From assembly GCA_964408775.1 (NCBI GenBank), contig CAYPAP010000001.1, positions 289,839-353,838 of the forward strand: a stretch of DNA of 64,000 nt, written 5' to 3'. Below are positions 162 to 57,303 of the stretch, in pieces. The DNA comes from an uncultured Gammaproteobacteria bacterium. Its GTDB lineage: Bacteria > Patescibacteriota > Patescibacteriia > Patescibacteriales > UBA12465. The translations under genes were made by a program, and so were the position numbers. Position 1 is the first letter of the stretch; every line of letters starts with the position of its first letter. A model generated the notes under the pieces. That model saw only the letters and a program-made list of their open reading frames with translations, was not told the origin of the DNA and did not search any database.

Positions 162-525
162 CTTCTTTTTTTTTGATTTAAAGAACTGGGCCCCGACACC
201 CAATTCCATTTTTTTTAGACAGAGGTCGGGTGCCATTATGTTGGACGCCTTATCATATTTAAATCACCCTGTCAATAGCTAAAAAATCCTTGATTTTTTA
301 AAAATATTATGTTAGGATAATAAAAAATAAATAAATTACCTTTCCCACGCTTTTTGCGCTAAAAGGCAATCCTATCAAAGAATAGGATTAAAGGTATTCT
401 AAACGGAAACCCATAATTTCTTAGAATACTTTTGGGTTTTTTTATTTAATTATTAATTAAAAAAATATTATTTAATTTTTAACTTTAATAATAGTTAATT
501 TTAAGTAATAAATGTTAAAGTTTTT

Positions 526-13198: not shown

Positions 13199-14068
13199 AT
13201 GAAAAAACTTGTTGTATTATTTGTAATTTTGGTTGCAATAGCAACCACCGTTTTTGGGCAGATTACCTCCAGTGACCTCCTCGAAAAGAGGACTCAGGAA
13301 ATTCAGGCCATCGATAAGAGCCTGAGAAAATCTGCTACCAGGGGCACCCAAGTCGACCCAGATGAACGGGAAAAGCTGGTGGCAAAAGTTGACTCCTTTT
13401 ACCAGCCGCTAATCTTAGCGGCCATGGGAAGAGAGTCTTCCGCAAGTACCACTACCTCTGCCACACCGACCACTTCTTCTGTCCAGAAGAAGGCAGGTAG
13501 TCATATTACGTATGGTAGCGATGGGAAGGTGACAGGAACCACCGAGGTTTCTTCGGAAACACCGGTGGCACCACCAAACCCCATACCAGCTCCGGCTGAC
13601 AGAAATTGTTTTGGCTCAACGGTCACCTATCAAGGAGACCAGGGGGCTTTCAGCGGCAACTCTACCTCTGTAAGAAGAGGTTCGGAGGCTTACGCTACCG
13701 TAGCCATAGCTGATGCCAACGCCTATCTGGTCCGCCAGATGGCTAAAGGTGCTAGCGCCACGGTAAATGCCCCAGCCACAGGAAACCAGGTTGGTCTGGA
13801 AGGAATGATTATAAACAAATATCGCTTCCGCGAATTGGAAGTGGAAATTGTTGGGACAAATCCCGGCAATGTTTATAAAAGAACATTCCTCCTGGGAAAA
13901 GAACAGTCCATCACGGACTACTTACTCCCAGGAAACTACAGGGCTACCATTAAAATTGTTGGACATGGATCTCCTGCGATCCATAACTTCACAGTAGCCC
14001 CCCAGCGAACCCACTCTTTCCACGGAAAGAATGTTTTCTGGGGCCTATATGGAGGAAGCTCCTGGTAA
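13199..14068 (+). CDS. secreted hypothetical protein, strongly GC-enriched relative to flanks
   Basis: 289 aa. Signal peptide MKKLVVLFVILVAIATTVFGQ and a Ser/Thr/Pro-rich linker. No family recognised. Has its own promoter and terminator. Confidence 0.6.
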   Translation: MKKLVVLFVILVAIATTVFGQITSSDLLEKRTQEIQAIDKSLRKSATRGTQVDPDEREKLVAKVDSFYQPLILAAMGRESSASTTTSATPTTSSVQKKAGSHITYGSDGKVTGTTEVSSETPVAPPNPIPAPADRNCFGSTVTYQGDQGAFSGNSTSVRRGSEAYATVAIADANAYLVRQMAKGASATVNAPATGNQVGLEGMIINKYRFRELEVEIVGTNPGNVYKRTFLLGKEQSITDYLLPGNYRATIKIVGHGSPAIHNFTVAPQRTHSFHGKNVFWGLYGGSSW

Positions 14069-14197: not shown

Positions 14198-14641
14198 CTA
14201 AGGAGTTCCACCAACATTAGGGGTTGTTGTGGTTTGAGATCCTCCAGGTAAATTTCTGAAAACAAAAGCTGTAATTGCATAAGCTAAAACCACAATAATC
14301 AACCCTATAACCGCATTCTTAATTCTACTCTGAGCTTTTTTAACTTGTTCTTCATTACCGCCGGCAGTCATCCACTGATAACCGCTAAATATCATCAAAA
14401 TAACAAAAATAACAGCTAAAAGAGATAGAAGAGTAAGAATAATAACACTAATAATTCCCTCTGCTTGAACAGATTGAGAAAATCCAGCTGAAGATATAAA
14501 GGCGCCCATTTGTCTCTCTCCAGAAGAGGCTACCTCCTCCGCAGGGTTACCTGCCAAAACATTATTAACCGAAAAACCGAAACTAAAAAAAACAGCTAAC
14601 AGAATTATTATTACAAATTTATTTTTAAAAAGTTTTTTCAT
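14198..14641 (-). CDS. TrbC/VirB2-like 'T4SS pilin' family small membrane protein (paralog 1)
   Basis: Signal peptide, variable region, TM1, conserved loop QWMTAGGNEEQVKKAQ, TM2 (AVIGLIIVVLAYAI). Confidence 0.75.
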   Translation of the reverse strand: MKKLFKNKFVIIILLAVFFSFGFSVNNVLAGNPAEEVASSGERQMGAFISSAGFSQSVQAEGIISVIILTLLSLLAVIFVILMIFSGYQWMTAGGNEEQVKKAQSRIKNAVIGLIIVVLAYAITAFVFRNLPGGSQTTTTPNVGGTP

Positions 14642-14645
14642 ATAA

Positions 14646-15047
14646 TTATTGTTGTATTCTATTTATAAAATATCTATCTATCAAACTCCAAATAGCATAG
14701 GCTGATAACGTTATAATTAATCCAATAATAGCGCTTTTAATTCTCTCCTGAGCTTTTTTAACTTTTTCCTCATTGCCACCAGCGGTCATCCATTGAACAC
14801 CACCAAAGATTATCAAGATTATAAAAAGAACACCCAAAATAGAAAGAACCACATTAGCCACTAAACCCAGACCACTAGCCAAGGAAGTTTCATCAGCAGA
14901 AGAATAACCACCGCTTTCGCCAACTTTTTCTAAACGACCCAAAATACCAGAAGAATCACTTTCATCAGCAAAAACTAAAAAGGGTAAACACAATAAAAAA
15001 ACTAAGAAAATTGCTGAAAGAAATGAGTTTATATTTTTTTTAACCAT
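14646..15047 (-). CDS. T4SS pilin-like protein (paralog 2)
   Basis: Same architecture. Loop motif is QWMTAGGNEEKVKKAQ. Confidence 0.75.
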   Translation of the reverse strand: MVKKNINSFLSAIFLVFLLCLPFLVFADESDSSGILGRLEKVGESGGYSSADETSLASGLGLVANVVLSILGVLFIILIIFGGVQWMTAGGNEEKVKKAQERIKSAIIGLIITLSAYAIWSLIDRYFINRIQQ

Positions 15048-15081
15048 AGAAAAATTATTTATTTAAATTAAATCCTAATAA

Positions 15082-15501
15082 TTAAACCCCGGAGGCCTGA
15101 TTAATAAACGCCCCTATTACAAAAATAGAAATGGCATAGGCTGTTAAGACTATTACTAACCCTATTATCGCCCTTCTAATAATACTTTGAGCCTTGCTTA
15201 TCTTTTCTTCATTTCCGCTAGCAGTCATCCACTGAATTCCTCCATAAATCATTAAAATAATGAAAAGAACACCTAGAATAGAGAGGACAACCTGGACTGC
15301 TGTTCCCACAACTGTTTCCGGAGTAGTGGTTCCACTGATATCATAACCCATTTGAGAAGCGGCGGCACCCAAGGCCTTGTCTTCACCAGATCCAAAGGCA
15401 TCTGAAAGATTAGCAGCCTTAGTACTGGAAATAAATAAAAAGCAAAACAAAAATATTATTAATAAAAAATGAATGGTTTTAAAATAATTATTTTTTTTCA
15501 T
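15082..15501 (-). CDS. T4SS pilin-like protein (paralog 3)
   Basis: Same architecture. Loop motif is QWMTASGNEEKISKAQ. Confidence 0.75.
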   Translation of the reverse strand: MKKNNYFKTIHFLLIIFLFCFLFISSTKAANLSDAFGSGEDKALGAAASQMGYDISGTTTPETVVGTAVQVVLSILGVLFIILMIYGGIQWMTASGNEEKISKAQSIIRRAIIGLVIVLTAYAISIFVIGAFINQASGV

Positions 15502-15523
15502 AAAAACAATCTAATATAAACAA

Positions 15524-15934
15524 TTATTGCAAAGAATCTGAAAAAGCTGTAACCAATAAAATACTAATGGCATAAGCTAACAAGACTACAGCTAAGCCAA
15601 TAATGGCCCTAGTAATAGTAGACTTGGCTCTCTCTAGTTTTTGTTCATTGCCCCCAGCAGTCATCCATAAAATCCCTCCTAATATTAACATGATCATAAA
15701 AAGAACTCCTACGAGAGACAAAACTATATTGACAATCACACCAGCCCCAGAATCCAGAGATCCGGCACTATTAAAAATTTTTTGACTAGTATGTCCTGTC
15801 CCCTTGGCTGTGGTTTCTACGCCAGTGCTCTCTAGAAAAGAAAAGGCATTACCAACCCCTATATTTAAAGAGAAAAATAAAAAAAAGATTAAAGGTAATA
15901 TAAGAATATAATTTTTAATCTTTTTTAAACTCAT
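15524..15934 (-). CDS. T4SS pilin-like protein (paralog 4)
   Basis: Same architecture. Loop motif is LWMTAGGNEQKLERAK. Confidence 0.75.
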   Translation of the reverse strand: MSLKKIKNYILILPLIFFLFFSLNIGVGNAFSFLESTGVETTAKGTGHTSQKIFNSAGSLDSGAGVIVNIVLSLVGVLFMIMLILGGILWMTAGGNEQKLERAKSTITRAIIGLAVVLLAYAISILLVTAFSDSLQ

Positions 15935-15947
15935 AGAAAATTAAATT

Positions 15948-16412
15948 TTAACAGTATAAACTAATATTTTCTAAAATATTTTTTGATGTTCCACCACCAT
16001 CAGTTCCTGCCGGATCGGAGCTGGTTAACTGTTCTCCAATAAAGGCGGTAATTGCATAAGCAGCTAGAACTATGATTAAACCAACAATTGCCTGAACAAT
16101 GAGACCACGTGCCTTTGCCACCTGTTGTTCGTTGCCTTGAGACAGCATCCATGTAAGACCTCCATAGATTATTAAGGCCATAAAAATAACCCCGATGAAA
16201 GACAGAATGGCCCCTATTAATATACCTAGTCGACTAGAAATAAAATTACCGGAGCCTTTGGAGTTATCAACATCTTCAACACTAAAAGCCTCCCCCAAGT
16301 CCCCCACCTGAACTGTTTCCCCCAGACCATAAGAAGCCTGGACTACAGCAAAAAAAGAAAAAAATAAAAAAACCACTAATAAAAAAATGATAAATTTATT
16401 TAATTTAAACAT
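15948..16412 (-). CDS. T4SS pilin-like protein (paralog 5, most divergent loop)
   Basis: Same architecture. Loop motif is TWMLSQGNEQQVAKAR. Confidence 0.7.
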   Translation of the reverse strand: MFKLNKFIIFLLVVFLFFSFFAVVQASYGLGETVQVGDLGEAFSVEDVDNSKGSGNFISSRLGILIGAILSFIGVIFMALIIYGGLTWMLSQGNEQQVAKARGLIVQAIVGLIIVLAAYAITAFIGEQLTSSDPAGTDGGGTSKNILENISLYC

Positions 16413-16546
16413 ATTTTATATTTTAATAGCAAAATATACGTCCATTGTTGTAGGCACTTTAATAATAAAACGCTCACAACGATGGTGCTTATTTCTAAAA
16501 ATAAGCACCGTACTTCCAAAATCGACTTTAGAAATAACACAAAGAA

Positions 16547-16942
16547 CTAGTTTCCGGTTGCAGACATTAATTCGTTTAGAACAAATGAAGCGATTCCCCA
16601 GGCGGCTAGAATTATAACCAAACCGATAACACCGGCTCCTAATAATTTTTTGGCCTCGGCCACTTTCTCTTCATTGCCTCCAGCGGTCATCCATTTAAAT
16701 CCACCCAAAAGAACGATAATAACGGCGATGATTCCCAATAAAGTTAGAACTACGTTAATAATTTGGGCTATCATGGTGCGAGGATCTTTTTGTCCCAAGA
16801 CAATCTCTTCTCCTCCTGCGGCCCCATTAATATAATTATAACCGAAATTATCTCCGGCTGCCTCTACTCCAGCAGGCAATACCATCAAAAACGGAGTTAA
16901 AAACAAAGAAACTATAAACAAAGAAATTATTTTTTTTCTCAT
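16547..16942 (-). CDS. T4SS pilin-like protein (paralog 6)
   Basis: Loop motif KWMTAGGNEEKVAEAK. Strong SD (GAAAGGTGGTGA) upstream. Confidence 0.8.
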   Translation of the reverse strand: MRKKIISLFIVSLFLTPFLMVLPAGVEAAGDNFGYNYINGAAGGEEIVLGQKDPRTMIAQIINVVLTLLGIIAVIIVLLGGFKWMTAGGNEEKVAEAKKLLGAGVIGLVIILAAWGIASFVLNELMSATGN

Positions 16943-17500
16943 AATTCACCACCTTTCTAGTTTTAAATTTAATAAATTATAATATTAAAATTATAACACA
17001 AAAGAACGGAAACGACAATAAAAACATTAATAAAAAGTGAGCACTAGTTTCCAGTAGCGTCCATTAATTCATTTAAGACAAACGAAGTTATTCCCCAGGC
17101 GGCTAGAATTATAACCAAACCGATAACACCGGCTCCTAATAATTTTTTGGCCTCGGCCACTTTCTCTTCATTGCCTCCAGCGGTCATCCATTTAAATCCA
17201 CCCAAAAGAACGATAATAACGGCGATGATTCCCAATAAAGTTAGAACTACGTTAATAATTTGGGCTATCATGGTGCGAGGATCTTTTTGTCCCAAGACAA
17301 TCTCTTCTCCTCCTGCGGCCCCATTAATATAATTATAACCGAAATTATCTCCGGCTGCCTCTACTCCAGCAGGCAATACCATCAAAAACGGAGTTAAAAA
17401 CAAAGAAACTATAAACAAAGAAATTATTTTTTTTCTCATAATTCACCACCTTTCTAGTTTTAAATTTAATAAATTATAATATTAAAATTATAACACAAAA
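16593..17500. repeat. tandem duplication, period 497 bp, with 411 bp identical by eye (16593-17003 = 17090-17500)
   Basis: Line-by-line comparison of the two copies. Identity covers the promoter, SD and most of the CDS, but stops about 45 nt before the stop codons. Confidence 0.85.
17044..17439 (-). CDS. T4SS pilin-like protein (paralog 7, near-identical to paralog 6)
   Basis: Differs from paralog 6 only in the last ~15 residues. Confidence 0.8.
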   Translation of the reverse strand: MRKKIISLFIVSLFLTPFLMVLPAGVEAAGDNFGYNYINGAAGGEEIVLGQKDPRTMIAQIINVVLTLLGIIAVIIVLLGGFKWMTAGGNEEKVAEAKKLLGAGVIGLVIILAAWGITSFVLNELMDATGN

Positions 17501-17533
17501 AAAGTAAACAACAATAAAAACAAACCAAAAAAG

Positions 17534-17929
17534 CTAGTTTCCGGTTGCGTTCATTAGTTCGTTCAGAACAAACGAGGTTATTCCCCAAGCAGCTAGAATT
17601 ATAACCAAACCGATAACGCCAGCTCCTAATAATTTTTTAGCCTCAGACACCTTGTCTTCATTGCCCCCGGCGGTCATCCATTTAAATCCACCCAAAAGGA
17701 CAATAACAACAGCAATAATACCAAGCAACGTTAAAACAACGTTGATAATCTGGGCTACCATAGTACGAGGATCTTTTTGTCCTAAAACTATGCCTTCTCC
17801 GGCTACCCCATTGCCATTTACATACCTTAATCCAAAAGGATCGGACGGCGTAGCCTCAGCTGGAAAAGCAATTAAAAATGGGGTTAAGAACAAAAAGAAT
17901 ACCAACAAAGAGATTATTTTTTTTTTCAT
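17534..17929 (-). CDS. T4SS pilin-like protein (paralog 8)
   Basis: Loop motif KWMTAGGNEDKVSEAK. Close relative of paralogs 6 and 7. Confidence 0.8.
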   Translation of the reverse strand: MKKKIISLLVFFLFLTPFLIAFPAEATPSDPFGLRYVNGNGVAGEGIVLGQKDPRTMVAQIINVVLTLLGIIAVVIVLLGGFKWMTAGGNEDKVSEAKKLLGAGVIGLVIILAAWGITSFVLNELMNATGN

Positions 17930-25949: not shown

Positions 25950-26342
25950 TTATTTTAATTCAACACCAGAAGTATCTCCATCCCAACTGAGGTTAAAGGC
26001 CTCCATCACAAAGTTAATAATTATATAGCTAGTAAAAACAAGAGCTAAGCCAATAACGGCTGCTATTAAAATATTTTTAGCCTTAGAGACTTTTTCAGAG
26101 TTTCCAGCTGAAATTAGCATTAAAAACCCACCAATAACAAACATTAAAAGCGCTAAAGACCCGACTATTCCTAAAATCAAACTAGACACATTTATTCCCA
26201 CTCCGACTAAGTCCTCTAACTCATAATTACCGCTTTCATATTTAGACCCTTGAGGGACTATTGAATTACTGGCAGAAACAAAACTAAAACTAAGAAGTGA
26301 AAAAACAATAACTATTGTTGCTATTTTAAAAAATTTTAACAT
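25950..26342 (-). CDS. T4SS pilin-like protein (dispersed ninth paralog)
   Basis: Signal peptide and two TM helices. Loop LMLISAGNSEKVSKAKN is homologous to the WMTAGGNEEK loop of the array. Confidence 0.65.
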   Translation of the reverse strand: MLKFFKIATIVIVFSLLSFSFVSASNSIVPQGSKYESGNYELEDLVGVGINVSSLILGIVGSLALLMFVIGGFLMLISAGNSEKVSKAKNILIAAVIGLALVFTSYIIINFVMEAFNLSWDGDTSGVELK

Positions 26343-45034: not shown

Positions 45035-46156
45035 TTATTGTTTTATTGGCATAACTAAATACAAAAAGTCATCTCCTTTTTCAGGTCTGATAACACATGG
45101 TGTATTATTATCAACAACTCCCAATACAATATTTTCTGAATTAATATTATTTAACCCCTCTAATAAATATTTATAATTAACAAACACCTCATTGTCCCCC
45201 CCCTTAATATTCGCATCTAGTTCAATAAAATTTTCTCCCGCCTGACTAGAGCTAGATGAAATAATTATTTTATTTTTTATAAAATTCAAATTAACATCAT
45301 TTATTCCTGTTTTAGAAAAAAGACCAGCCGCTTTAATGGCTCGCGAAAAAATATTTTTATTAATAATGATTTTTGTTTTTTCCTCTTTCGGTATTATCTG
45401 TTTATAGTCCGGATAGTTTCCAACTATTATTCTAGACCCAATTTTAGTTGATCCAATTGAAAAAAATATTTGGTTATTATTTAAATATAAATTAACCTCC
45501 CCCTCTCCCTCAATCTGTTCTTCGGTCTTAAAGTTATTCAAAATTCTAACCAACTCCTGAATTGTTCTAGCAGGGACAATAATAGTAAACTCTTCTTCAT
45601 TTTTATTTTTAATTTTTATTTTTTTCTCAGCCAAGCGATAACTATCTGTTCCAACCAGGGTTAACTCTCCTGACAAAAAAGAGAAATAAACCCCAGACAA
45701 CTCAACCCTACCATCATTACTAGAAACAGAAAAAACAGTACTAGACAAGGCCTCCCTAAAATCCTCAACTGCAAAAGAATAAAAACTTTTTTGATCAATT
45801 TTTGGAAGAACCGGAAAGTCTTCGGCTGATTGTCCCTTTATTCTTGTTTTATGATTTTTAGAATCAACCTTTAAATCATCTTCAACCCTTTCTATTTCAA
45901 CCTTGTCCTCAGATAAAAGATTTATATAATCACTCATAATTCTGGCATCAACCGTAAACTCTCCCTCTTTTTCAACCTTTCCCCTTAAAGAGCTTTCTAT
46001 GCTTATTTCTAGATTAGTAGAAATTAGTTCTATCCCTTCTTTTTTTGCTTTTATTAAAATATTATTTAGTATCGGTAAATTTATATTTTTAGTTGTTAAA
46101 TGTGAAACTATGGCTAGGCCCTGTTTTAAGTTTTCTTTCAAAATTATAAATTTCAT
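45035..46156 (-). CDS. dnaN: DNA polymerase III beta sliding clamp
   Basis: 373 aa. N-terminus MKFIILKENLKQGL....H....K..LPIL.NILI. Located directly downstream of dnaA. Confidence 0.9.
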   Translation of the reverse strand: MKFIILKENLKQGLAIVSHLTTKNINLPILNNILIKAKKEGIELISTNLEISIESSLRGKVEKEGEFTVDARIMSDYINLLSEDKVEIERVEDDLKVDSKNHKTRIKGQSAEDFPVLPKIDQKSFYSFAVEDFREALSSTVFSVSSNDGRVELSGVYFSFLSGELTLVGTDSYRLAEKKIKIKNKNEEEFTIIVPARTIQELVRILNNFKTEEQIEGEGEVNLYLNNNQIFFSIGSTKIGSRIIVGNYPDYKQIIPKEEKTKIIINKNIFSRAIKAAGLFSKTGINDVNLNFIKNKIIISSSSSQAGENFIELDANIKGGDNEVFVNYKYLLEGLNNINSENIVLGVVDNNTPCVIRPEKGDDFLYLVMPIKQ

Positions 46157-46450
46157 ATTTTTCTTTTATATTTATTTTATATTATATTAAATAATAATAG
46201 TAATAAGGGGTGGGGATATGTTTGTTATTTTTTACTTCGGCTTTTGTTTTATTGTATTAAGTCGACCTTTTGACTGTTTATAACTATGTTTAAATTTTCG
46301 GTAAAAACTTTTTGATTTGTTAATAACTTTTTGTTTTTAAAACTTATACACATTTTATAAAAAACGATTAATAGTTTTTGCACAGATTTTAAATTTTTTA
46401 TTAACTTAATATCAACCGTTTATTAACAACTATTTTTTCTTTTTTTATAA
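46157..46450. other. dnaA-dnaN intergenic region, candidate oriC part
   Basis: Very AT-rich 294-bp spacer with a one-mismatch DnaA box TTATACACA near 46344. Confidence 0.35.
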
Positions 46451-47818
46451 CTATAAAGAGCCATATAACAGCTGTTTTATAGACTGAATGTCTTGAACAA
46501 GTTTTTCGTTTTCGTCTTTTTCTTTGTTTATTTTATTAAAGGCGTGGATGGCGGTTGTATGGTCTCTTCCCCCTAGGGCTTCTCCTATTGTGGGATAAGA
46601 CGTTTTTAATTCTTCTCTCATTAAAAATATAGATATTTGTCTGGGAAATACTAACTCTTTTTTTCTTTTTTCTCCCATTAGGTCTTTTACACTTATATTA
46701 TAAAACTGGGCAACGCTCTCTATTATGTCTTTGGGGCTCATCGGTTTTATTTGATTGTTGTTTGTTAAATCATTTAAAATGGTTTTTACCATTTTTAATG
46801 TTGGTTTTAGATTATGAAATTCGTGATAGGCAATAATTTTATTCAAAGCCCCCTCTAATTCTCTAATATTATTTTGGATACTTTCAGCAATATATTTTAA
46901 AACTTCATCTTCTATTATGTAATTCTTTTCTTTAGCCTTCTTTTCTAATATAGCAATTTTTGTTTCAATATCTGGTCTTCCAACGTCTGCCACCATGCCA
47001 GACTCAAATCGAGAAATTAGCCTTTTTTCAATCGCTGGGATGGCCTTTGGTGGCCTGTCAGAAGATAATACTATTTGTTTATCTCCCTGCTGTAATTCAT
47101 TGAAGGTGTGAAAAAACTCTTCTTGAGTTCCGTCTTTTCCCCCCATAAACTGAACATCATCTACTAATAGTAGATCAACGTTTCGATATAGATTTTTAAA
47201 TTCTTTTGCTCGCCCTCCTCTTATAGAGTCTATATAATTATTTGTGAATTGTTCACTGGTTGTGTATAAAACTTTTTTGTTGTTTTTTACTAGCTCGTTT
47301 CCCATAGCTTGAAGCAAATGAGTTTTTCCTAGTCCTACACCCCCGTAAATAAATAAAGGGTTGTAAGCCTTGCCCGGGTTGCTAACAATTGCCTGACAAG
47401 CTGCGTAGGCTAGCTCGGTTGCCTTGCCCACCACAAAAGTAGAAAAGGAATATTTTGGGTTCAGACCAAATCGGCTAACGTTTATTTTATTTTCTTGTGA
47501 GCAGGCTTTTATTGGTTCTTCTTTTTTTTCATTTTTTTTACTTATATCCTTCTCGCTGCTTTCTTCTTTTTTTAGATTTACACTGAATTCTATTTCAGTA
47601 ATTTTTTTTTCAACAATTTTTTCTATAGAAGATTTAATGGCCTTGTAATATTTTTGCTCTAACCATCTTTTAGTGAATTCATTTGGCACCGATATAATAA
47701 CCTTATTATCCTCTAGGCAATAAATAAAAGTGTTTTTAAACCAAGTAATAAAGTTTACCCTGGAAATTCCAATTTCTAGTTCGCCTAATACGGCTTGCCA
47801 AATTTGATCATTGGTCAT
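46451..47818 (-). CDS. dnaA: chromosomal replication initiator DnaA
   Basis: Walker A GGVGLGKTHL, box VII, and a C-terminal DNA-binding domain (GGRDHTTAIHA). Confidence 0.95.
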   Translation of the reverse strand: MTNDQIWQAVLGELEIGISRVNFITWFKNTFIYCLEDNKVIISVPNEFTKRWLEQKYYKAIKSSIEKIVEKKITEIEFSVNLKKEESSEKDISKKNEKKEEPIKACSQENKINVSRFGLNPKYSFSTFVVGKATELAYAACQAIVSNPGKAYNPLFIYGGVGLGKTHLLQAMGNELVKNNKKVLYTTSEQFTNNYIDSIRGGRAKEFKNLYRNVDLLLVDDVQFMGGKDGTQEEFFHTFNELQQGDKQIVLSSDRPPKAIPAIEKRLISRFESGMVADVGRPDIETKIAILEKKAKEKNYIIEDEVLKYIAESIQNNIRELEGALNKIIAYHEFHNLKPTLKMVKTILNDLTNNNQIKPMSPKDIIESVAQFYNISVKDLMGEKRKKELVFPRQISIFLMREELKTSYPTIGEALGGRDHTTAIHAFNKINKEKDENEKLVQDIQSIKQLLYGSL

Positions 47819-48125
47819 ATGTTTTTTAAAATAATTATTTTAGAGAATTAACTTGTTTAGTTTATTATAGTCGAAAAATAGGAATAAAACAATTTAAGGT
47901 TTGTTCAAATACTGTTTATAAGGTGTGGATAACATAATTATAGAAAAGTGCTCAAATGGTCGCGCCCCCTTGATGGAAAATAAGTGGTTGTTACTGGGTG
48001 GTTGTACATTAAACCAGTAATAAAAAAAAACAACTTCGTATAATTGAAATTGTTTTTTATCCGCTTTCATCCACGCATGGTTGTATGATCTTTGGTAAGC
48101 GACCCGTGGCTGTGGCGGGATGCAG
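47819..48125. other. region upstream of dnaA with DnaA boxes, candidate oriC part
   Basis: Perfect DnaA box TGTGGATAA at 47924-47932. Degenerate boxes TTATCCGCT (48057-48065) and TCATCCACG (48067-48075). Confidence 0.5.
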
Positions 48126-48199
48126 TGGGCGCACAAGGACTCGAACCCTGGACCCCTTCGGTGTAAACGAAGTGCTCTAACCAACTGAGCTATGCGCCC
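48126..48199 (-). tRNA. tRNA-Val (anticodon TAC)
   Basis: GGGCGCA/TGCGCCC acceptor, anticodon stem CTTCG/CGAAG with loop TTTACAC, T-loop TTCGAGT. Confidence 0.85.
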
Positions 48200-48211
48200 T
48201 ATATTTGTTTG

Positions 48212-48295
48212 TGGGCGAGAGAGGACTCGAACCTCCACGGGTTTTATCCCACAAACCCCTCAAGCTTGCGTGTCTGCCAGTTTCACCACTCGCCC
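48212..48295 (-). tRNA. tRNA-Leu (anticodon GAG)
   Basis: GGGCGAG/CTCGCCC acceptor, anticodon loop TTGAGGG, long variable arm, T-loop TTCGAGT. Confidence 0.8.
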
Positions 48296-48300
48296 AAGCC

Positions 48301-48642
48301 TTATTTTTTAATAACTTTTTCTTTTAACTTCTTCTTATAACCTCTTTTAAGAAAATAAAGCTTAGCTCGTCGCACCTCAGCTTGTTTTTTTATTTCTATT
48401 TTTGTTATTGTTGGAAGATTTAATGGAAATATTTTTTCGACTCCAACTCCATCGGATATTTTTCTTATTGTGATGGTTCCTCCGGTTTCTTTCCCGTGTT
48501 TTTTGGCAATAATAATACCCTCAAAGTACTGAACCCTTTCCTTCTCTTCTCCCTTAGCATTTAGTTCTTTTATTTTTTGATAAACCCGGACAGTCATACC
48601 TGGCTTTAGTTCGGCAAACTCCTCTTTTTTTGTTTCGGCCAT
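48301..48642 (-). CDS. rplS: 50S ribosomal protein L19
   Basis: L19 pattern (F..G..V.V..KI.E......R.Q.FEG.II..K......T.T.RKIS.GVGVE..FPL.S). Confidence 0.9.
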   Translation of the reverse strand: MAETKKEEFAELKPGMTVRVYQKIKELNAKGEEKERVQYFEGIIIAKKHGKETGGTITIRKISDGVGVEKIFPLNLPTITKIEIKKQAEVRRAKLYFLKRGYKKKLKEKVIKK

Positions 48643-48712
48643 ATTTTTAGTGTTATATTTATTTAAAATTAAAAAACAAGATTCTTCTTGTTTTTATATC
48701 TTATATTTTTAT

Positions 48713-49291
48713 TTAGCTTTTGTCAACAGATGTCCTTTTCAGGTTTTTTTCAATAAATTCGAAGGTTTTATTAAAAACCTCCTCTATTTTAAGATCGCTA
48801 GTATCTAAATAAAAATCGTAATTGTTTTTATTGTGAACATTGATATTAAAATATTTTTTATATCTTTTATTATCACTTTCTTGTCTGGCCCGGGTACTTC
48901 TTAAAACGTCTTCAACTGTGTCCAGATTTTTGTCTTCATTTCTTTTAGAGTTTGTTTTTAAATTTTTAAAAATTCTTTGAGCTCCAACCTCATCTTTGAC
49001 GTCAAGATATATTTTTAAAGAGTGAGGAATAAAGTGCCAGGAAGTCCTTCCCTCAATAATAAAATCATCTTTAGTTTTTCCAAGCTCTTCTTGAAGCTTA
49101 TCAACCTCTAAGTCGGTTGAAGGGTCTTTTTCTCCCAGTTTATTATATTCGGCTAGGGTTAATCCCATTTTTTTAGCAGCCTCTCGTCTTATCTCTCCCA
49201 TATAATATCTTGGCCAATTTAATTTCTCAGCAATCATTTTAGCTATAGTACTCTTTCCAGATCCTTGAGTCCCACCAATAGAAATTATCAT
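48713..49291 (-). CDS. cytidylate kinase-like P-loop NMP kinase
   Basis: P-loop ISIGGTQGSGKSTIAKMIAEKL and an NMP-kinase-like layout. Confidence 0.6.
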   Translation of the reverse strand: MIISIGGTQGSGKSTIAKMIAEKLNWPRYYMGEIRREAAKKMGLTLAEYNKLGEKDPSTDLEVDKLQEELGKTKDDFIIEGRTSWHFIPHSLKIYLDVKDEVGAQRIFKNLKTNSKRNEDKNLDTVEDVLRSTRARQESDNKRYKKYFNINVHNKNNYDFYLDTSDLKIEEVFNKTFEFIEKNLKRTSVDKS

Positions 49292-49439
49292 AAAAATAAT
49301 ATAAATTATTATAGTAGTTATTATAAACGCAAAAAATAAAAAAGTAAAATTTCTTTGAATATTTTTTTAAAATGTGGTATAATAAAAAAACAAAAGTTAA
49401 AGATCAATCATTTTTTACAAACCTCTAATTAATAAAAGT

Positions 49440-49865
49440 ATGAGTAGAAATAAAAAAATATTTTTTATCTTTCTGGCCATGGTTATTGTCTTGGCTGCAA
49501 TAATTTTGTCTATAATAACTAGTAGAAATGATGACAATGAAGTATATAAAAATGGAAAAATCATCAATAAAAGCTTTGTAGAAGAAACAACATTTATAGA
49601 AAGAGAAAATATTATTAAAGGTTTGCTGGCAGATAAATATGGAGTTGATAAAGGAGTTGAGGTTTTTATTGCCAGAGAATCAGACAGCCATATTAATGGA
49701 GTTTTTTTTATAGAAAACTATAACAATGAAGAGCTTTTTCGGGGGAAATTTTTTGCAAAAGCTGATAACTCCCTTGATATCATTTGGTCTGGAGGGGGAC
49801 AAATTGAGTGCCCAGCCATTGTTAATAATAACTTCCCTGTAGAAATGGCCCCAGAGTGTTTTTAA
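49440..49865 (+). CDS. hypothetical membrane-anchored protein
   Basis: 141 aa with an N-terminal TM helix. No family recognised. Confidence 0.45.
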   Translation: MSRNKKIFFIFLAMVIVLAAIILSIITSRNDDNEVYKNGKIINKSFVEETTFIERENIIKGLLADKYGVDKGVEVFIARESDSHINGVFFIENYNNEELFRGKFFAKADNSLDIIWSGGGQIECPAIVNNNFPVEMAPECF

Positions 49866-49889
49866 GACAATGTTTAAGTTTCTTTTAAT

Positions 49890-49918
49890 TTGACAAAAAG
49901 CTTTTATTAAAATATAAT
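49890..49918 (+). promoter_or_regulatory. consensus sigma70-type promoter upstream of rpmH
   Basis: TTGACA, 17-nt spacer, TATAAT. Confidence 0.7.
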
Positions 49919-49994
49919 ATGCTTGATTTTATAAATTTAATTATTTTAAAATAATTAGCTGTTAATTATTTTTTTATTTTAAAAATACAAAAAT

Positions 49995-50132
49995 ATGCCA
50001 AAGAGAACGTTTCAGCCAAATACCAAGAGAGCCAAGAGAAAGCATGGTTTTATGAAAAGAATGCAAACAAAAGATGGACAAGATGTTTTGAAAAGGCGCC
50101 GAGATAAGGGGCGCAAGGTTTTGAGCAAGTAA
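49995..50132 (+). CDS. rpmH: 50S ribosomal protein L34
   Basis: Manual translation gives [45 protein letters not shown]. It is below the ORF-track length cut-off. Confidence 0.9.
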
Positions 50133-50182
50133 AATTATTTTTATTTTCAAAATAAGATATTTTTTTAATTGTAAAAAATAAA

Positions 50183-50524
50183 ATGATTAAAAAAGAAAAG
50201 CGCCTAAGAAAGAAAAAGGACATTGATAATGTTTTTAAAAATGGAAAATCATTTTATTCTGGCTTATTGGGAGTAAAAATTTTAAAAAACAACTTAGAAT
50301 TTAATAGATATTGTGTTGTAATTTCGGCTAATATTAGCAAAAAAGCGTCAGAAAGAAACAAAATTAAAAGAAGAATAAAGGCCGTTATTTTAGAGGAAGA
50401 GCCCTTTTTAAAATCGGGATTTGATTGTTTAATTATCGCAAAAAAAGAAATTTCGTTGGCCGACTTTTTTTTTATAAATAGTGAAGTGAAAAAAACGTTT
50501 AAAAAAATTAGTCTTTATTCTTAA
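50183..50524 (+). CDS. rnpA: ribonuclease P protein component
   Basis: Basic 113-aa protein following rpmH. Contains an RNR-like motif ([12 protein letters not shown]). Confidence 0.85.
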
Positions 50525-50805
50525 TGAAAATTTTTATGTTTTTTAGAGCTTGGTTTTTTGTAAGCCAATTTTTTAAGAAAATTTTTATCACTCTTATTAA
50601 GGTTTATCAAAAAACCCTTTCACCTGACCACGGTCTTTTAAAAGGATTTTTTCCTCATGGTTATTGTCGTTTTACCCCCACCTGCTCGCAGTATGGAATA
50701 GACGCTATCTCTAAGCACGGCGTTTTAATAGGGAGTTTAAAGGCAATGTGGCGTATATTAAGGTGTAACCCCTTTAATAAGGGCGGGCACGATCCGGTTA
50801 AGTAA
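50524..50805 (+). CDS. yidD: membrane protein insertion efficiency factor YidD
   Basis: YQKTLSP....[18 protein letters not shown]...G...[14 protein letters not shown]. Confidence 0.9.
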
Positions 50806-50837
50806 TTTTTTATTAATAATTTATTATCTTTAATTCT

Positions 50838-51602
50838 ATGAATGGACTATTTGAAACCATTTTTTATCAACCAATTCTAAACTTATTAGTTTTTTTATAT
50901 AATACTTTCGGCGACCTGGGTGTGGCGATTATATTTTTAACGTTAATTATTAAGGTTATTTTATTGCCTTTATCAAAAAAATCTATTAAATCGCAAAAGG
51001 CCTTACAAGATCTTCAGCCCAAGATAGATGAGTTAAAGAAAAAGTTTAAAAATGATAAACAGGCGATGAGCCTAGCTTTAATGGCCCTTTATAAAGAAAA
51101 CAAGGTTAATCCCTTTTCTTCTTGTTTGCCGTTATTAATTCAATTACCTTTTTTTATTGCTATTTTCAAAGTTTTTCAAGACGGTTTTGCTCAAAATCAC
51201 TTAGATTTATTATATCCTTTTGTAAACAATCCAGAAGTTATAAATACGGTTAGTTTGGGATTTTTTGAATTATCGGAGAGAAGTATAGTTTTAGCCCTTT
51301 TAGCTGGAGCTGCTCAATTCTGGCAAGGAAAAATGATGATGTCTAAGAAGCCAGAAATTAAAACAGAGGGATCTAAGGACGAAAACATGATGGCCATAAT
51401 GAATAAACAGATGATGTATATTATGCCGGGGATTACAGTATTAATTGGCGTAAGCTTCCCAGCGGGTTTGACTTTTTATTGGTTTTTAACTACTTTATTT
51501 ACCGTTTTTCAGCAGAAACTTGTTTTTCATAAATCAAAAAAAAGCGAATCAAAGGAAAACATTGTTAAGGTTGTGGAGGAAAAAACGGGGTCCGAGAGAT
51601 AG
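50838..51602 (+). CDS. yidC: YidC/Oxa1 family membrane protein insertase
   Basis: Short YidC with conserved LPL..K...S......LQP....LKKK and P..GCLP.L.Q.P.F-like motifs. Confidence 0.88.
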   Translation: MNGLFETIFYQPILNLLVFLYNTFGDLGVAIIFLTLIIKVILLPLSKKSIKSQKALQDLQPKIDELKKKFKNDKQAMSLALMALYKENKVNPFSSCLPLLIQLPFFIAIFKVFQDGFAQNHLDLLYPFVNNPEVINTVSLGFFELSERSIVLALLAGAAQFWQGKMMMSKKPEIKTEGSKDENMMAIMNKQMMYIMPGITVLIGVSFPAGLTFYWFLTTLFTVFQQKLVFHKSKKSESKENIVKVVEEKTGSER

Positions 51603-51710
51603 AGATACATCGGCCTTAAAGGACGGAGAATGTCTGTTTGGGTTATTATAAATTTAATATAAATAGAAAAGTACACTGTTTTGTAACCAGTGCACTTTTT
51701 AAGAACTTCT

Positions 51711-51734
51711 AAATTGTTCTACGTAGAACAATTT
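51711..51734. repeat. perfect palindrome, copy 1 (AAATTGTTCTACGTAGAACAATTT)
   Basis: Self-complementary over 24 bp. Core is TGTTCTACGTAGAACA. Confidence 0.9.
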
Positions 51735-51790
51735 TTTTGCTTATTAGGAGAGGCAGTTTAATTTTTTATAGAATCAAGTTGTCTTTTTTT

Positions 51791-51806
51791 TGTTCTACGT
51801 AGAACA
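51791..51806. repeat. perfect palindrome, copy 2 (TGTTCTACGTAGAACA)
   Basis: Self-complementary over 16 bp. Confidence 0.9.
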
Positions 51807-51960
51807 TTTATTGTTTATTTTAGAAAATAAATGCGTTGTATTTTTATCTTTGTACACATAAAAGAACAAAGGTCTTAAGGGGGAATATAATAAGATATGT
51901 AGAAAGACCATGTTTAGAGGGATTAAGGCTTTTAAGGTTTTTATAATGTGGGGGTGATAA

Positions 51961-51992
51961 TTAAAAAATGTTCTACGTAGAACATTTTTTAA
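51961..51992. repeat. perfect palindrome, copy 3 (TTAAAAAATGTTCTACGTAGAACATTTTTTAA)
   Basis: Self-complementary over 32 bp. Confidence 0.9.
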
Positions 51993-52109
51993 TTTATTTT
52001 AAGAAAGAGAATTCTTTTTATTTTGGTTTCTATATATAGAAGGCTAAAGAGTTTTGAAAAAAGATAAGAATGGGACAAAATATAAATATATAGAAGGTTT
52101 TTTCCTAAA

Positions 52110-53186
52110 TTAGTCTAAAAGGCACCGCACAGCCAAGCCATTAGCTCGGCCGTAACTGTTCATGTATGCATTACTACTATCGAAGTAAAGGTAGCGCGAA
52201 TTCGTGCCATCTACGGAACTCGCCCAATAGCGGCCGCTAGAACCAACATCGTAGCGAACGCCCACCTGTCGGTGGCTGTAGCCGGCTAATGTAAGTTTTA
52301 AAGGTGTGGCAAAGGCTCCGGCTGAGTTGTGTGTTCCCCAGCTTACTCTTTCAGCTTCCCATTCTGCTTCGGTTGGTATTCTCCAGTCACTTGGACAGGG
52401 GTTATTAACTCCACTTGCTCCTTGCCATAGATTATTGTTTTCCGGACTACGCCAGTCATTAGGAGAACTTCCGTTAGTTATAAAATTAGCATGTCCTGGG
52501 GTGTCGGTGGTGGCCAATGTTGCTGTTGTAGCTGGAGCTGGACTTCTAACTTGATGCCCATCATCTAATCTGCCCCATTGGAATAGGTCACCATAGGCGG
52601 CGGCATCAGTGGAGGATATGGCTACTTGCGTGGCTCCGAGGTTGCGGTCTAACCAACATTCAGTAGTAGTTGCATTTAATACAGTTCCGTAGGTTACAGG
52701 AGATCCGTTGTATGTGAAAGTCACCGTGTATTCTCCGCACCTAGGAACGTGGACCACCCCTGAAGGGCTGGCCTCTTTTAATCCAGCTGACAGGCTAGCT
52801 ATAGCACCTCCTGTACAAAAATCTATGGTATAGGTCGATCCGTCAGCAGATGTATAGGTGTAAGTGTTATCACTTTCCTCACAGTCTCCGTCTGCTGGAG
52901 TAGGCGCTGTTGGGACAGTGGCCATATAGGTTGATCCTCCCGTGGCTATAGTACTATCTATTTCTCCAGTTAGCGGATATGCTCCGGTATCATTATAATA
53001 CAGTTCTAATGCTGTTTGCATTTGTCTAACATCAGCTATTCTTTTAGCGTCTCGAGCATTTTTTCTAGCATTTTGTAGGGACACCACAGCTAGAGTAGCC
53101 AAAATACCAATTATGGCGATTACTACTAATAGTTCAATTAGAGTAAAGGCTGGCTTATAAGATCTCTTGACCTTAAATTTAAACAT
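52110..53186 (-). CDS. type IV pilin-like protein fused to a FISUMP (Fibrobacter succinogenes major paralogous) domain
   Basis: Prepilin N-terminus [21 protein letters not shown]-terminal motifs CWLDRNLGA, YGDLFQWGR, WRIPTEAEWEA, GRYWASS and GLAVRCLLD match the FISUMP pattern. The C-terminal two-thirds are strongly GC-enriched. Confidence 0.8.
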   Translation of the reverse strand: MFKFKVKRSYKPAFTLIELLVVIAIIGILATLAVVSLQNARKNARDAKRIADVRQMQTALELYYNDTGAYPLTGEIDSTIATGGSTYMATVPTAPTPADGDCEESDNTYTYTSADGSTYTIDFCTGGAIASLSAGLKEASPSGVVHVPRCGEYTVTFTYNGSPVTYGTVLNATTTECWLDRNLGATQVAISSTDAAAYGDLFQWGRLDDGHQVRSPAPATTATLATTDTPGHANFITNGSSPNDWRSPENNNLWQGASGVNNPCPSDWRIPTEAEWEAERVSWGTHNSAGAFATPLKLTLAGYSHRQVGVRYDVGSSGRYWASSVDGTNSRYLYFDSSNAYMNSYGRANGLAVRCLLD

Positions 53187-53269
53187 AGAATTAGTTTTTA
53201 TTAATATTTTTTAATCTACTAATGATGTAGATATATAAATCTATTTATTGTTATAAAAAACAATTCCAG

Positions 53270-53289
53270 AATGTTCTACGTAGAACATT
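53270..53289. repeat. perfect palindrome, copy 4 (AATGTTCTACGTAGAACATT)
   Basis: Self-complementary over 20 bp. Lies between gene 53340-54059 and the pilin-FISUMP gene. Confidence 0.9.
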
Positions 53290-53339
53290 TATAATTTTGT
53301 CTTGATGGCTTAAGCAACAATGGTCTCTCAAATAGTTTT

Positions 53340-56780: not shown

Positions 56781-57224
56781 ATGAAAAACAAAAAAACAGG
56801 CTTCACTTTAATTGAGTTATTGGTAGTTATTGCTATCATCGGAATATTAGCTACTCTTGCGGTTGTCTCCCTGCAAAATGCCAGAAAAAATGCTAGAGAT
56901 GCTAAAAGAGTTGCCGATGTTAGACAAATGCAAACAGCCCTAGAATTGTATTTTAATGACTGGCAAGAATATCCAGCTACTTTTACTGCTGGACAAATTG
57001 CTACTAGTAGCTCTGTTTATATGGCCACTGTTCCAACAGCTCCTACTCCGCATGATGGGACTGGTTGTACTGCGAGCAACAATGCTTATCAAAATAATTA
57101 TGAAACTCAATCAAGCAATGCCTCTTACACTATAGATTTTTGTTTAGGAGGAACCAGTGGAACAACCGAAGGACCTGCCTGTGCTACTCCGGCCGGGATC
57201 ATAACAGGAGAAGCCTGTATTTAG
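56781..57224 (+). CDS. type IV pilin-like protein (prepilin N-terminal methylation domain)
   Basis: [37 protein letters not shown]. About 60 N-terminal residues are nearly identical to those of 52110-53186. Terminator at 57252-57280. Confidence 0.85.
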
Positions 57225-57303
57225 TTTTTAAAAAATATTCAAAATAAAAAAAGAGTTGTTCTCACGGACAACTCTTTTTTGTTGAGGATTTTTTAATATA
57301 AAT

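Follow-up and report, generated by a model that had tools for sequence, protein, structure and literature searches.

A prepilin–FISUMP modular pilin of Patescibacteria type whose C-terminal segment is possibly a fossil variable region

We have analysed a stretch of DNA of 64,000 nucleotides (contig CAYPAP010000001.1, positions 289,839 to 353,838; the window hereafter) and find that one of its genes encodes a genuine modular type IV pilin, which ends in a domain of the FISUMP (Fibrobacter succinogenes major paralogous) type. The protein, which we call P0001, has a complete pilin module followed by a FISUMP domain beginning at C150, and is thus a modular pilin in the sense of Raynaud et al. (2021). 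Taken as one, the data are probably best explained by a lectin-like adhesin that is displayed by a pilus, and in which the C-terminal segment is possibly the relic of the variable region (VR) of a diversity-generating retroelement (DGR).

RESULTS

The architecture of P0001

A first-pass annotation of this DNA had reported two pilin open reading frames (ORFs), at 52110-53186 and 56781-57224, and both are present. The motifs that it quoted from the longer one (CWLDRNLGA, YGDLFQWGR, WRIPTEAEWEA, YWASS and GLAVRCLLD) are all found in P0001. The exact protein is present in public data on a contig of 431,656 bp, which also holds the shorter pilin of 147 amino acids (aa) and a further paralog, P0003. 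The gene and its parts, with the shorter paralog, are as follows.

52110..53186, minus strand: whole gene of the prepilin–FISUMP modular pilin P0001, 358 aa (ORF and domain matches)
53151..53186, minus strand: class III (prepilin) leader, residues 1-12 (MFKFKVKRSYKP), with Ala at -1 (N_methyl models)
52992..53150, minus strand: alpha-1 assembly helix, residues 13-65 (paralog alignment, AlphaFold2 (AF2) model, PDB sequence matches)
52740..52991, minus strand: small globular pilin head, residues 66-149, with Cys102 and Cys124 (alignment to the 147-aa pilin, AF2)
52287..52739, minus strand: FISUMP / C-type-lectin-like core, residues 150-300, with CWLDRNLGA, YGDLFQWGR, NNPCP and WRIPTEAEWEAER (Pfam, TIGRFAM, AF2, Foldseek)
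52113..52286, minus strand: VR-equivalent segment, residues 301-358, which is hypervariable, low in adenine and has many NNC codons (codon modelling, change-point search, relatives)
56781..57224, plus strand: 147-aa prepilin paralog with Gly at -1, candidate major pilin (ORF, domain matches, BLASTP)

The N-terminal section of P0001 matches the N_methyl models above their curated cutoffs (PF07963, 31 bits against a cutoff of 21.2; TIGR02532, 31.1 bits against 16.3), and an N_methyl match is found in 21 of 21 full-length relatives. The glutamate at +5 is present within F14-T-L-I-E18, and the prepilin would be expected to be cleaved immediately before this sequence. Matches in the PDB to the sequence of the pilin part are solely to pilins and pseudopilins (Geobacter pilin, GspG and PilA). 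In an AF2 model of the full-length protein made with 21 sequences the hydrophobic helix runs from residue 16 to 67 with a predicted local distance difference test score (pLDDT) of 72-95, and the head (pLDDT 81-92) contains beta strands.

How are the two pilins related? They are 61% identical across the entire short protein (BLASTP, E 8e-53). The first-pass annotation had described near-identical N-termini with a nucleotide identity of about 80% and mostly synonymous changes, and this is borne out. In the section FTLIELL...LELY 49 of 50 residues are equal, with a single I/V exchange, while there are 27 single-base differences in 150 nt, giving 82% identity. Over 61 codons including the leader the identity is 76.5%, with 27 synonymous and nine non-synonymous codon differences. 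The two proteins also have in common the head motif of 14 residues leading to ...YTIDFC.GG, as had been noted. From their sequences, this is an old paralogy in which the helix appears to be under strong purifying selection. Recent gene conversion was considered as the origin of the identical helices, and is excluded because ~44% of the helix codons differ synonymously between the two genes. The 147-aa protein is a candidate for the major pilin.

The alignment of the short pilin with P0001 places C146 of the former opposite C150 of the latter, and the FISUMP part starts exactly where the short pilin ends. Since the short pilin stops one residue beyond the aligned cysteine, P0001 is a complete pilin with an appended domain.

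The FISUMP domain

The assignment of the C-terminal domain to FISUMP, which had previously been made from motifs, holds in the sense that matches to hidden Markov models are significant (Pfam E 4.9e-6; TIGR02145 E 9.3e-8), but not in the sense of exceeding the curated cutoffs, as both scores lie below them; the domain is a divergent one. The Pfam Fib_succ_major match covers positions 7-185 of the 187 in the profile. PF09603 is matched by 20 of 21 full-length relatives (best E 5.8e-10), and one relative also matches Lcl_C. Many proteins that carry a FISUMP annotation share 55-65% identity with the domain. On these sequence comparisons we regard the assignment as secure at the level of the family. 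The lipoprotein-type signal that is usual in the family (PMC5758913) is not present in P0001, which has the prepilin leader and pilin module instead. Cysteines 102, 124, 150, 177, 264 and 355 are conserved, and four of the six are invariant, C150, C177 and C264 among them. The six would presumably be paired in disulfide bonds. The domain is closed by the conserved tail R-A-N-G-x-A-V-R-C, containing C355, at the end of the VR-equivalent segment.

The full-length AF2 model is too poor at residues 180-260 to be of use for the FISUMP part, and we therefore used a model of the domain made from a deeper alignment. This covers residues 146-358, is based on 56 sequences, and has a pLDDT of 83 and a predicted template modelling score of 0.84. 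Its best Foldseek match among solved structures is the C-terminal domain of Legionella Lcl (8q4e; probability 0.99, 23% identity), and the next matches are weak, namely C-type-lectin-like domains of snake venoms and the immune system. The Lcl domain belongs to DUF1566 and is a C-type-lectin-like adhesin domain that binds sulphated glycosaminoglycans (PMC11162425). In a library of viral models (BFVD) the fold is matched best by a phage protein that carries the FISUMP annotation (E 3e-4), with DUF1566 proteins lower in the list at weak E-values.

The composition of the gene

The gene has 47% GC, compared with 32.8% for the window. The first-pass annotation had stated that the FISUMP part is markedly richer in GC than the pilin module, but this proves not to be the case. 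The head has 50% GC, the FISUMP part 49% and the helix 34%, placing the step at about residue 66, within the pilin module. The excess lies mainly at codon position 2 (0.53-0.62 compared with a background of 0.30), and the head of the 147-aa paralog has an equal value at that position (0.62). Thus the rise in GC content reflects an amino acid composition rich in Thr, Ala, Gly, Ser and Pro.

We simulated each segment from its own amino acid sequence using the synonymous codon usage of the window, and compared the result with the observed GC content. The helix, the head and FISUMP residues 150-300 are native by this measure (absolute z <= 0.8 for GC; head 0.4, residues 150-300 -0.3). Codons 301-358 alone are anomalous, with a GC content of 0.546 where 0.434 is expected (z 5.3), and a GC content at third codon positions (GC3) of 0.586 where 0.329 is expected (z 4.5). 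When residues 150-358 are taken together GC3 is mildly high (0.41, z 2.0). Adenine makes up 19.5% of codons 301-358 compared with 31.6% of the remaining gene, and C-ending codons are correspondingly frequent, at 24 of 58 (41%) compared with 63 of 300 (21%) elsewhere (p 0.002). In an unbiased change-point search GC3 and A content both break at codon 300/301, with a permutation p of 0.007 for GC3. The boundary of the anomaly therefore falls at the start of the VR-equivalent, and not at the domain boundary. The apparent GC-rich domain is mostly a matter of amino acid composition, and the remainder is a terminal cassette of 174 nt. The invariant stretches tied to this segment (52113-52286) are TATTGGGCGAGTTCCGTAGATGG and CGAGCTAATGG.

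Diversity-generating retroelements in relatives

Proteins with FISUMP, DUF1566 or DUF823 domains are a recognised group of DGR targets; they have the C-type-lectin fold and carry their VR at the C-terminus (PMC5758913; PMC11661182). We fetched 215 loci of relatives and flanks, which are designated by L numbers; L204 and L205 are the flanks of the window. L011 is a complete cassette of target, Avd, template repeat (TR) and reverse transcriptase (RT), and the FISUMP domain of its target is 63% identical to that of P0001. The mismatches between VR and TR lie at template adenines in 33 of 34 cases in L011, and in 22 of 23 in L055. The homology between VR and TR in active relatives extends over 173-185 nt and ends at the 3′ end of the gene; the anomalous segment of P0001 is 174 nt in length.

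Active VRs have a characteristic composition. Their A content is 0.10-0.13 and GC3 0.57-0.66, compared with 0.23-0.30 and 0.29-0.38 in the rest of their genes. The corresponding values for P0001 are 0.20 and 0.59 in the VR-equivalent, and 0.32 and 0.32 in the remaining gene. L010 has the same signature, in L004b and L007 it is weaker, and P0003 and other fusions exhibit little or no contrast. The C-terminal composition of P0001 fits a past DGR target; it does not establish that P0001 belongs among the DGR variable proteins.

Can a protein of this architecture be a DGR target? Loci L208 and L209 show that it can. Each has an intact DGR that targets a 353-aa protein with N_methyl and Fib_succ_major domains, with 15 of 16 and 11 of 12 mismatches at template adenines. 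Because the TR is identical in two metagenomes while the VRs differ, diversification is ongoing. Thus DGR-diversified prepilin–FISUMP proteins exist and are active in nature. In the searchable literature, one survey of the candidate phyla radiation (CPR) aside, we found no explicit account of DGR-diversified type IV pilins, apart from a single line elsewhere that counts a ‘GspG-type pilin’ domain among the rare proteins bearing a VR (PMC11661182). The neighbours of the DGR in L208 (2006-8525) include another RT gene, which lies on the opposite strand, and genes for an S26 signal peptidase, a serine recombinase and an MmeI-type methyltransferase; the region may be a mobile island. Further candidate modular surface proteins are found close to DGR cassettes: L215 9362-9860, with a weak N_methyl match and DUF2341, and L212 10527-11269, with DUF2341 and Laminin_G_3.

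A decayed DGR is present in L007 (1926-4007). Here a prepilin–FISUMP gene is followed by a stump of Avd of 50 aa joined to the C-terminal half of the RT, and the TR has been deleted. The mismatches of its VR to a TR like that of L056 have a frequency of 0.25 at A compared with 0.07 at non-A positions (p 0.002), so that the segment still looks templated. Its 3′ side carries a motif, GACTATTTGACTATTT (GACTATTT, in 2-3 tandem copies), that also follows an upstream FISUMP gene without a pilin module (L007 87-971), and the lost DGR therefore probably had two targets. The motif occurs in seven of the 215 loci: L007 (982-997 and 3196-3211), L011 (1290-1305), L208/L209 (5208-5223), L212/L213 (3326-3349) and L214 (301-324). 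It follows the stop codons of target genes served by DGRs of one clade of Patescibacteria RTs, at a distance of no more than ~40 nt wherever the target gene is in view. We use it as an empirical marker of this related CPR DGR clade, as defined in the present analysis, and it is a candidate for a target-recognition or boundary element. A post-VR hairpin is absent even in active cassettes, and so does not discriminate.

Paralogs in the same genome

The genome holds at least three prepilin–FISUMP copies, comprising P0001, P0003 and an interrupted copy that we term copy C. The alpha-1 helix is almost identical in protein sequence among these three and the 147-aa pilin. P0003 has 354 aa and is 72% identical to P0001. 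The identity falls to 31% in residues 301-358, compared with 74-91% elsewhere, and this segment has the lowest column conservation in the family. At the nucleotide level the VR-equivalents of the two are only 47% identical; the divergence is saturated, and a DGR pattern could not show in the codon-position test. Third positions differ at 33 of 49 codons in the VR-equivalent and at 68 of 149 elsewhere. P0003 lies directly upstream of a comEC-type gene (DUF4131 + Competence; L001 10001-12660, L002 4969-7628). The adjacency is not seen at other fusion loci, and it hints at a link between this one pilin–FISUMP copy and DNA uptake.

Copy C (L205 17384-18439) lies ~6.7 kb past the right edge of the window and is ~83% identical to P0001 in DNA. 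Its reading frame is preserved over the whole length except for one TAA, at codon 166, right where the FISUMP domain begins, and gene callers consequently give a pilin of 165 aa. It is either a fresh pseudogene or a means of turning a modular pilin into a short one. Its VR-equivalent has A 0.18 and GC3 0.45, compared with 0.31 and 0.29 in the remaining gene. In the comparison with P0001, codons changed at position 3 alone are equally frequent in the VR-equivalent (7 of 50) and elsewhere (43 of 287), from which it follows that no cassette has been replaced since the duplication that gave copy C. Yet codons that differ at positions 1 and 2 but agree at position 3 are about five-fold more frequent in the VR-equivalent (6 of 50 compared with 7 of 287; p 0.006), and 8 of these 13 codons end in C. 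Copy C is not itself a template repeat, as its mismatches are spread across all bases.

Distribution of the prepilin–FISUMP family

How general is this architecture? Our first set of homologs includes 24 prepilin–FISUMP proteins. Among named genomes, those with a match over the full length are Paceibacterota, Falkowbacteria and other Patescibacteria metagenome-assembled genomes (MAGs), together with a few bins that are unclassified or otherwise labelled. Several genomes carry two or three copies, at times in tandem. Matches to the domain only are mostly from Bacteroidota, usually with two or more FISUMP domains in tandem per protein, and such multi-repeat proteins dominate the top of the list in a profile search for fusions. 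In a neighbour-joining tree of 210 FISUMP domain instances, calculated without bootstrap, 20 of the 24 pilin-fused domains form one pure clade. The tree points to one old fusion, followed by vertical and paralogous spread within the Patescibacteria.

The architecture is thus recurrent in Patescibacteria, and is already catalogued in the literature. We take IPR011871 to be the FISUMP entry; the fifth representative in Fig. 8 of the catalogue, a protein of Ca. Wolfebacteria, fits this mapping. The pair IPR012902–IPR011871 is the fifth commonest modular-pilin architecture, with 40 proteins and ‘no clear function’ (Raynaud et al. 2021, PMC8179133 Dataset S1).

The locus and its palindromes

The gene content of the window is of Patescibacteria type, and close relatives of the window come from Patescibacteria MAGs. 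Just to the left of the pilin gene are dnaN, dnaA, rpmH, rnpA, yidD and yidC (45035-51602), and the locus therefore lies in what is likely to be the neighbourhood of the replication origin. As the earlier annotation had stated, no PilB/C/D/M/N/O genes are found in the window: T2SSE, T2SSF, Peptidase_A24 and PilMNO matches are absent, and the same holds within 10 kb of each edge.

A perfect palindrome with the core GTTCTACGTAGAAC is present in four copies around the gene, three of them in the gap 3′ of it and one upstream, and there are none elsewhere in the 64 kb and none at the paralog loci. These copies, with the terminator of the short pilin gene, are:

51959..51994, minus strand: perfect palindrome AATTAAAAAATGTTCTAC/GTAGAACATTTTTTAATT, 133 nt 3′ of the P0001 stop codon (16-bp hairpin and U-tract; repeat family D1)
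51705-51746 and 51781-51822, no strand assigned: two more copies of GTTCTACGTAGAAC, within the 507 bp that separate yidC from the pilin gene (hairpins of -8.7 and -4.7 kcal/mol)
53262..53303, no strand assigned: fourth copy of GTTCTACGTAGAAC, ~94 nt upstream of the ATG, between a DAGK-like gene and the pilin gene
57247-57280: terminator 3′ of the 147-aa pilin gene

The hairpin at 51959-51994 has a calculated energy of -14.7 kcal/mol (z -8.4), and the copy (51959-52000) has both A- and T-tracts; from the folding it is a probable bidirectional intrinsic terminator. The weaker copies could be a protein-binding site instead of a terminator.

Elsewhere in the window there are nine T4SS_pilin genes (PF18895, TrbC/VirB2-like) with the common motif ‘WMTAGGNEE’, eight in tandem at 14198-17929 and one at 25950-26342, all on the minus strand. 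Two of these (16547-16942 and 17044-17439) are almost identical to each other. Adjoining the cluster is a 289-aa ORF (13199-14068, plus strand) whose product begins with a sequence resembling a signal peptide and matches no Pfam family. This is compositionally the most foreign gene of the window, with a GC content of 0.495 where 0.433 is expected from its amino acids (z 6.5), and GC3 of 0.48.

DISCUSSION

A pilus-displayed adhesin

We propose that the two modules of P0001 have distinct roles. Residues 1-149, with their leader, helix and Cys-bridged head, would allow processing and polymerisation by a type IV pilus machine, whose genes would lie in another part of the genome. A single FISUMP / C-type-lectin-like domain, residues 150-358, follows with almost no linker and would be displayed outside the cell by the filament. 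The 147-aa pilin may be the bulk subunit, with the FISUMP-bearing copies acting as low-abundance adhesins, probably located at the tip or sparsely along the filament. That they would co-assemble into the same filament is suggested by the near-identity of the helix in protein sequence despite many silent differences. The binding surface would lie within the last ~58 residues (~301-350), because DGRs rewrite exactly that segment in close relatives. By analogy with the DGR variable proteins, Lcl, the PilB and PilC pilins of Streptococcus sanguinis and the PilX proteins of TM7x, we would expect a ligand to be bound there. The likely role is attachment of an episymbiont-type bacterium to a glycan or protein on the surface of a host cell.

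Judged from its composition and from the relatives, the segment of residues 301-358 is possibly a fossil DGR variable region from which the retroelement has been lost, with L007 providing a half-way stage. A number of observations weigh against parts of this proposal. On the pilin side, the residue at -1 is Ala (KPA|FTLIE, 53148-53150) and not the canonical Gly; among the 24 pilin–FISUMP proteins Ala is found in 16, Gly in seven and Ser in one. The pilus machinery was not found in the window or in the 10 kb beyond either edge. For the C-terminal domain, the scores lie below the curated cutoffs (27.4 < 33.9 for PF09603; 33 < 41.65 for TIGR02145), and Foldseek aligns it only weakly with solved structures, at best with E 8.5e-3 over 92 columns. 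The compositional anomaly has a partial counterpart in the 20-codon window 181-200, where the C content at third positions also reaches 0.55, and the codon pattern in the comparison with copy C might also arise from strong diversifying selection.

The remaining points concern the retroelement itself. There is no TR, RT or Avd within ~84 kb of P0001, either in sequence or in the Pfam tables (no RVT_1 or bAvd), and searching the window by tblastn with two RTs and two Avds gave nothing better than E 2. The 3′ end of the gene has no second copy in the window, and in the flanks L204/L205 copy C is the only one. The motif GACTATTTGACTATTT is absent from the 3′ side of P0001 and from the whole window. 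Mismatches of P0001 to three heterologous TRs are not enriched at adenine (p about 0.3), while the positive controls worked. Lastly, the protein is identical on the two to four contigs on which it is recorded, its 90% cluster is a single sequence, and no variants of the VR were seen. The evidence against P0001 being a current DGR target is stronger than that for its having been one in the past.

Alternative explanations

Most of these last points bear directly on the best placed of the alternatives, that P0001 is a current target of a DGR acting in trans, the last 174 nt being periodically replaced by mutagenised cDNA. In its favour, the VR-type composition is as strong as in active targets, its change-point falls exactly at VR length, and the changes at codon positions 1 and 2 relative to copy C fit. 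DGRs with remote targets are known, and the intact DGRs of L208/L209 show that the mechanism exists for this architecture. Against this stand the absence of TR, RT and Avd from the ~84 kb covered, that of a motif found after every target of the related DGR clade, the invariance of the protein on all recorded contigs, and the failure of the three known TRs to account for the VR as a template. We thus think a trans-acting DGR unlikely, and a DGR elsewhere in the genome less likely than a fossil VR.

The first-pass annotation had proposed a pilin with an acquired adhesin-like domain. The pilin, the adhesin-like C-terminal domain and the short paralog all stand, but foreign or recent acquisition does not. 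That the FISUMP domain or the C-terminal cassette came recently from a GC-richer donor such as Bacteroidota would agree with the 55-65% identity to Bacteroidota FISUMP proteins, with the mildly high GC3 of residues 150-358, and with the greater divergence of third positions from P0003 in the VR-equivalent, as might result from the swap of a cassette. Yet residues 150-300 are native in their codon usage, the pilin-fused domains form their own, old clade, the anomaly begins at the VR and not at the domain boundary, and the synonymous divergence from copy C is equal in the VR-equivalent and the remaining gene. Such an acquisition is therefore improbable.

Least probable of all is that P0001 is a subunit of a pseudopilus or competence pilus, with FISUMP capturing DNA or polysaccharide for uptake: the best equivalog-type matches are GspG, GspH and ComGC, P0003 adjoins comEC, and these organisms commonly have genes for competence and for type IV pilins (PMC9938205), but those matches are all far below their cutoffs and stem only from the shared N-terminal helix, comEC is beside P0003 alone, the nearest characterised fold relatives bind glycans or act as adhesins (PMC11162425), and the Saccharibacteria T4P-2 pilin mutants tested, including pilX2, had no significant change in competence (PMC11623550).

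Implications

Type IV pili are so far the best-supported explanation, from work on Saccharibacteria, of how ultra-small episymbiotic bacteria locate their hosts and keep hold of them. The prepilin–FISUMP family is a concrete candidate for an adhesin in the much less studied lineages of Paceibacterota type, and it brings together type IV pili and DGRs, both of which these organisms have in abundance. We suggest tentatively, and with rather less confidence than we place in the adhesin, that Patescibacteria bear type IV pili with a DGR-rewritten prepilin–FISUMP adhesin as a means of reprogrammable host recognition, and that P0001 is one state in a cycle of gain, diversification and loss. In such a cycle L208/L209 would be active, L007 half deleted, P0001, L010 and L004b would retain the footprint only, and P0003 would be fully ameliorated. 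If the binding face is or was diversified by a retroelement then host range could shift on short time scales, and the binding site could be located from the variable residues 301-350 with no need of a structure. For the window alone the outcome is more modest, in that the tempting reading of a foreign GC-rich domain has been corrected.

Comparison with known systems

The target of L208/L209 has the same two modules as P0001 and a similar length. It is 28% identical overall and its domain belongs to another FISUMP subfamily, of the GTQTWMTSNL type, and may for that reason derive from an independent fusion. The DGR variable proteins of category ‘d’ with CLec2 VRs, such as Legionella LdtA, share the domain family of P0001, and place the VR at the extreme C-terminus with the ending ...G-x-S-V-R-C-x-K-D. 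Typical FISUMP proteins of this class carry a lipoprotein or Sec signal, where P0001 has its prepilin leader and pilin module. The C-terminal domain of Legionella Lcl (8q4e) is the closest solved fold, and is C-type-lectin-like. It differs in forming a trimer on a collagen-like stalk and in being without disulfides, whereas the P0001 domain has conserved cysteines. The tip adhesins of the Type V pilus of Bacteroides also place a VR of C-type-lectin fold on the distal subunit of a pilus (bioRxiv 10.1101/2024.11.15.621889), in an unrelated lipoprotein and strand-exchange system from another phylum.

Two further parallels are found among type IV pilins. Modular pilins serve as adhesins (PMC8179133), and PilB and PilC of S. 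sanguinis, with vWA and lectin modules respectively, resemble P0001 in having a small pilin module, a short linker and a binding module (PMC8179133; PMC9934059) that the filament is predicted to display, probably at its tip. Their modules are vWA or concanavalin-like in place of FISUMP / C-type-lectin-like, and the host of P0001 is of Patescibacteria type. PilX1 and PilX2 of Nanosynbacter lyticus TM7x are themselves type IV pilins of Patescibacteria with an accessory C-terminal lectin-like domain (PMC11623550). The accessory folds are a beta-jelly roll and a beta-propeller, and the proteins are without the canonical PilD signal that P0001 possesses, albeit with Ala at -1. PilX2 contributes to host binding, and the involvement of glycans has been shown (PMC11623550). 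Lectin-like minor pilins thus mediate host binding in Saccharibacteria (PMC11623550).

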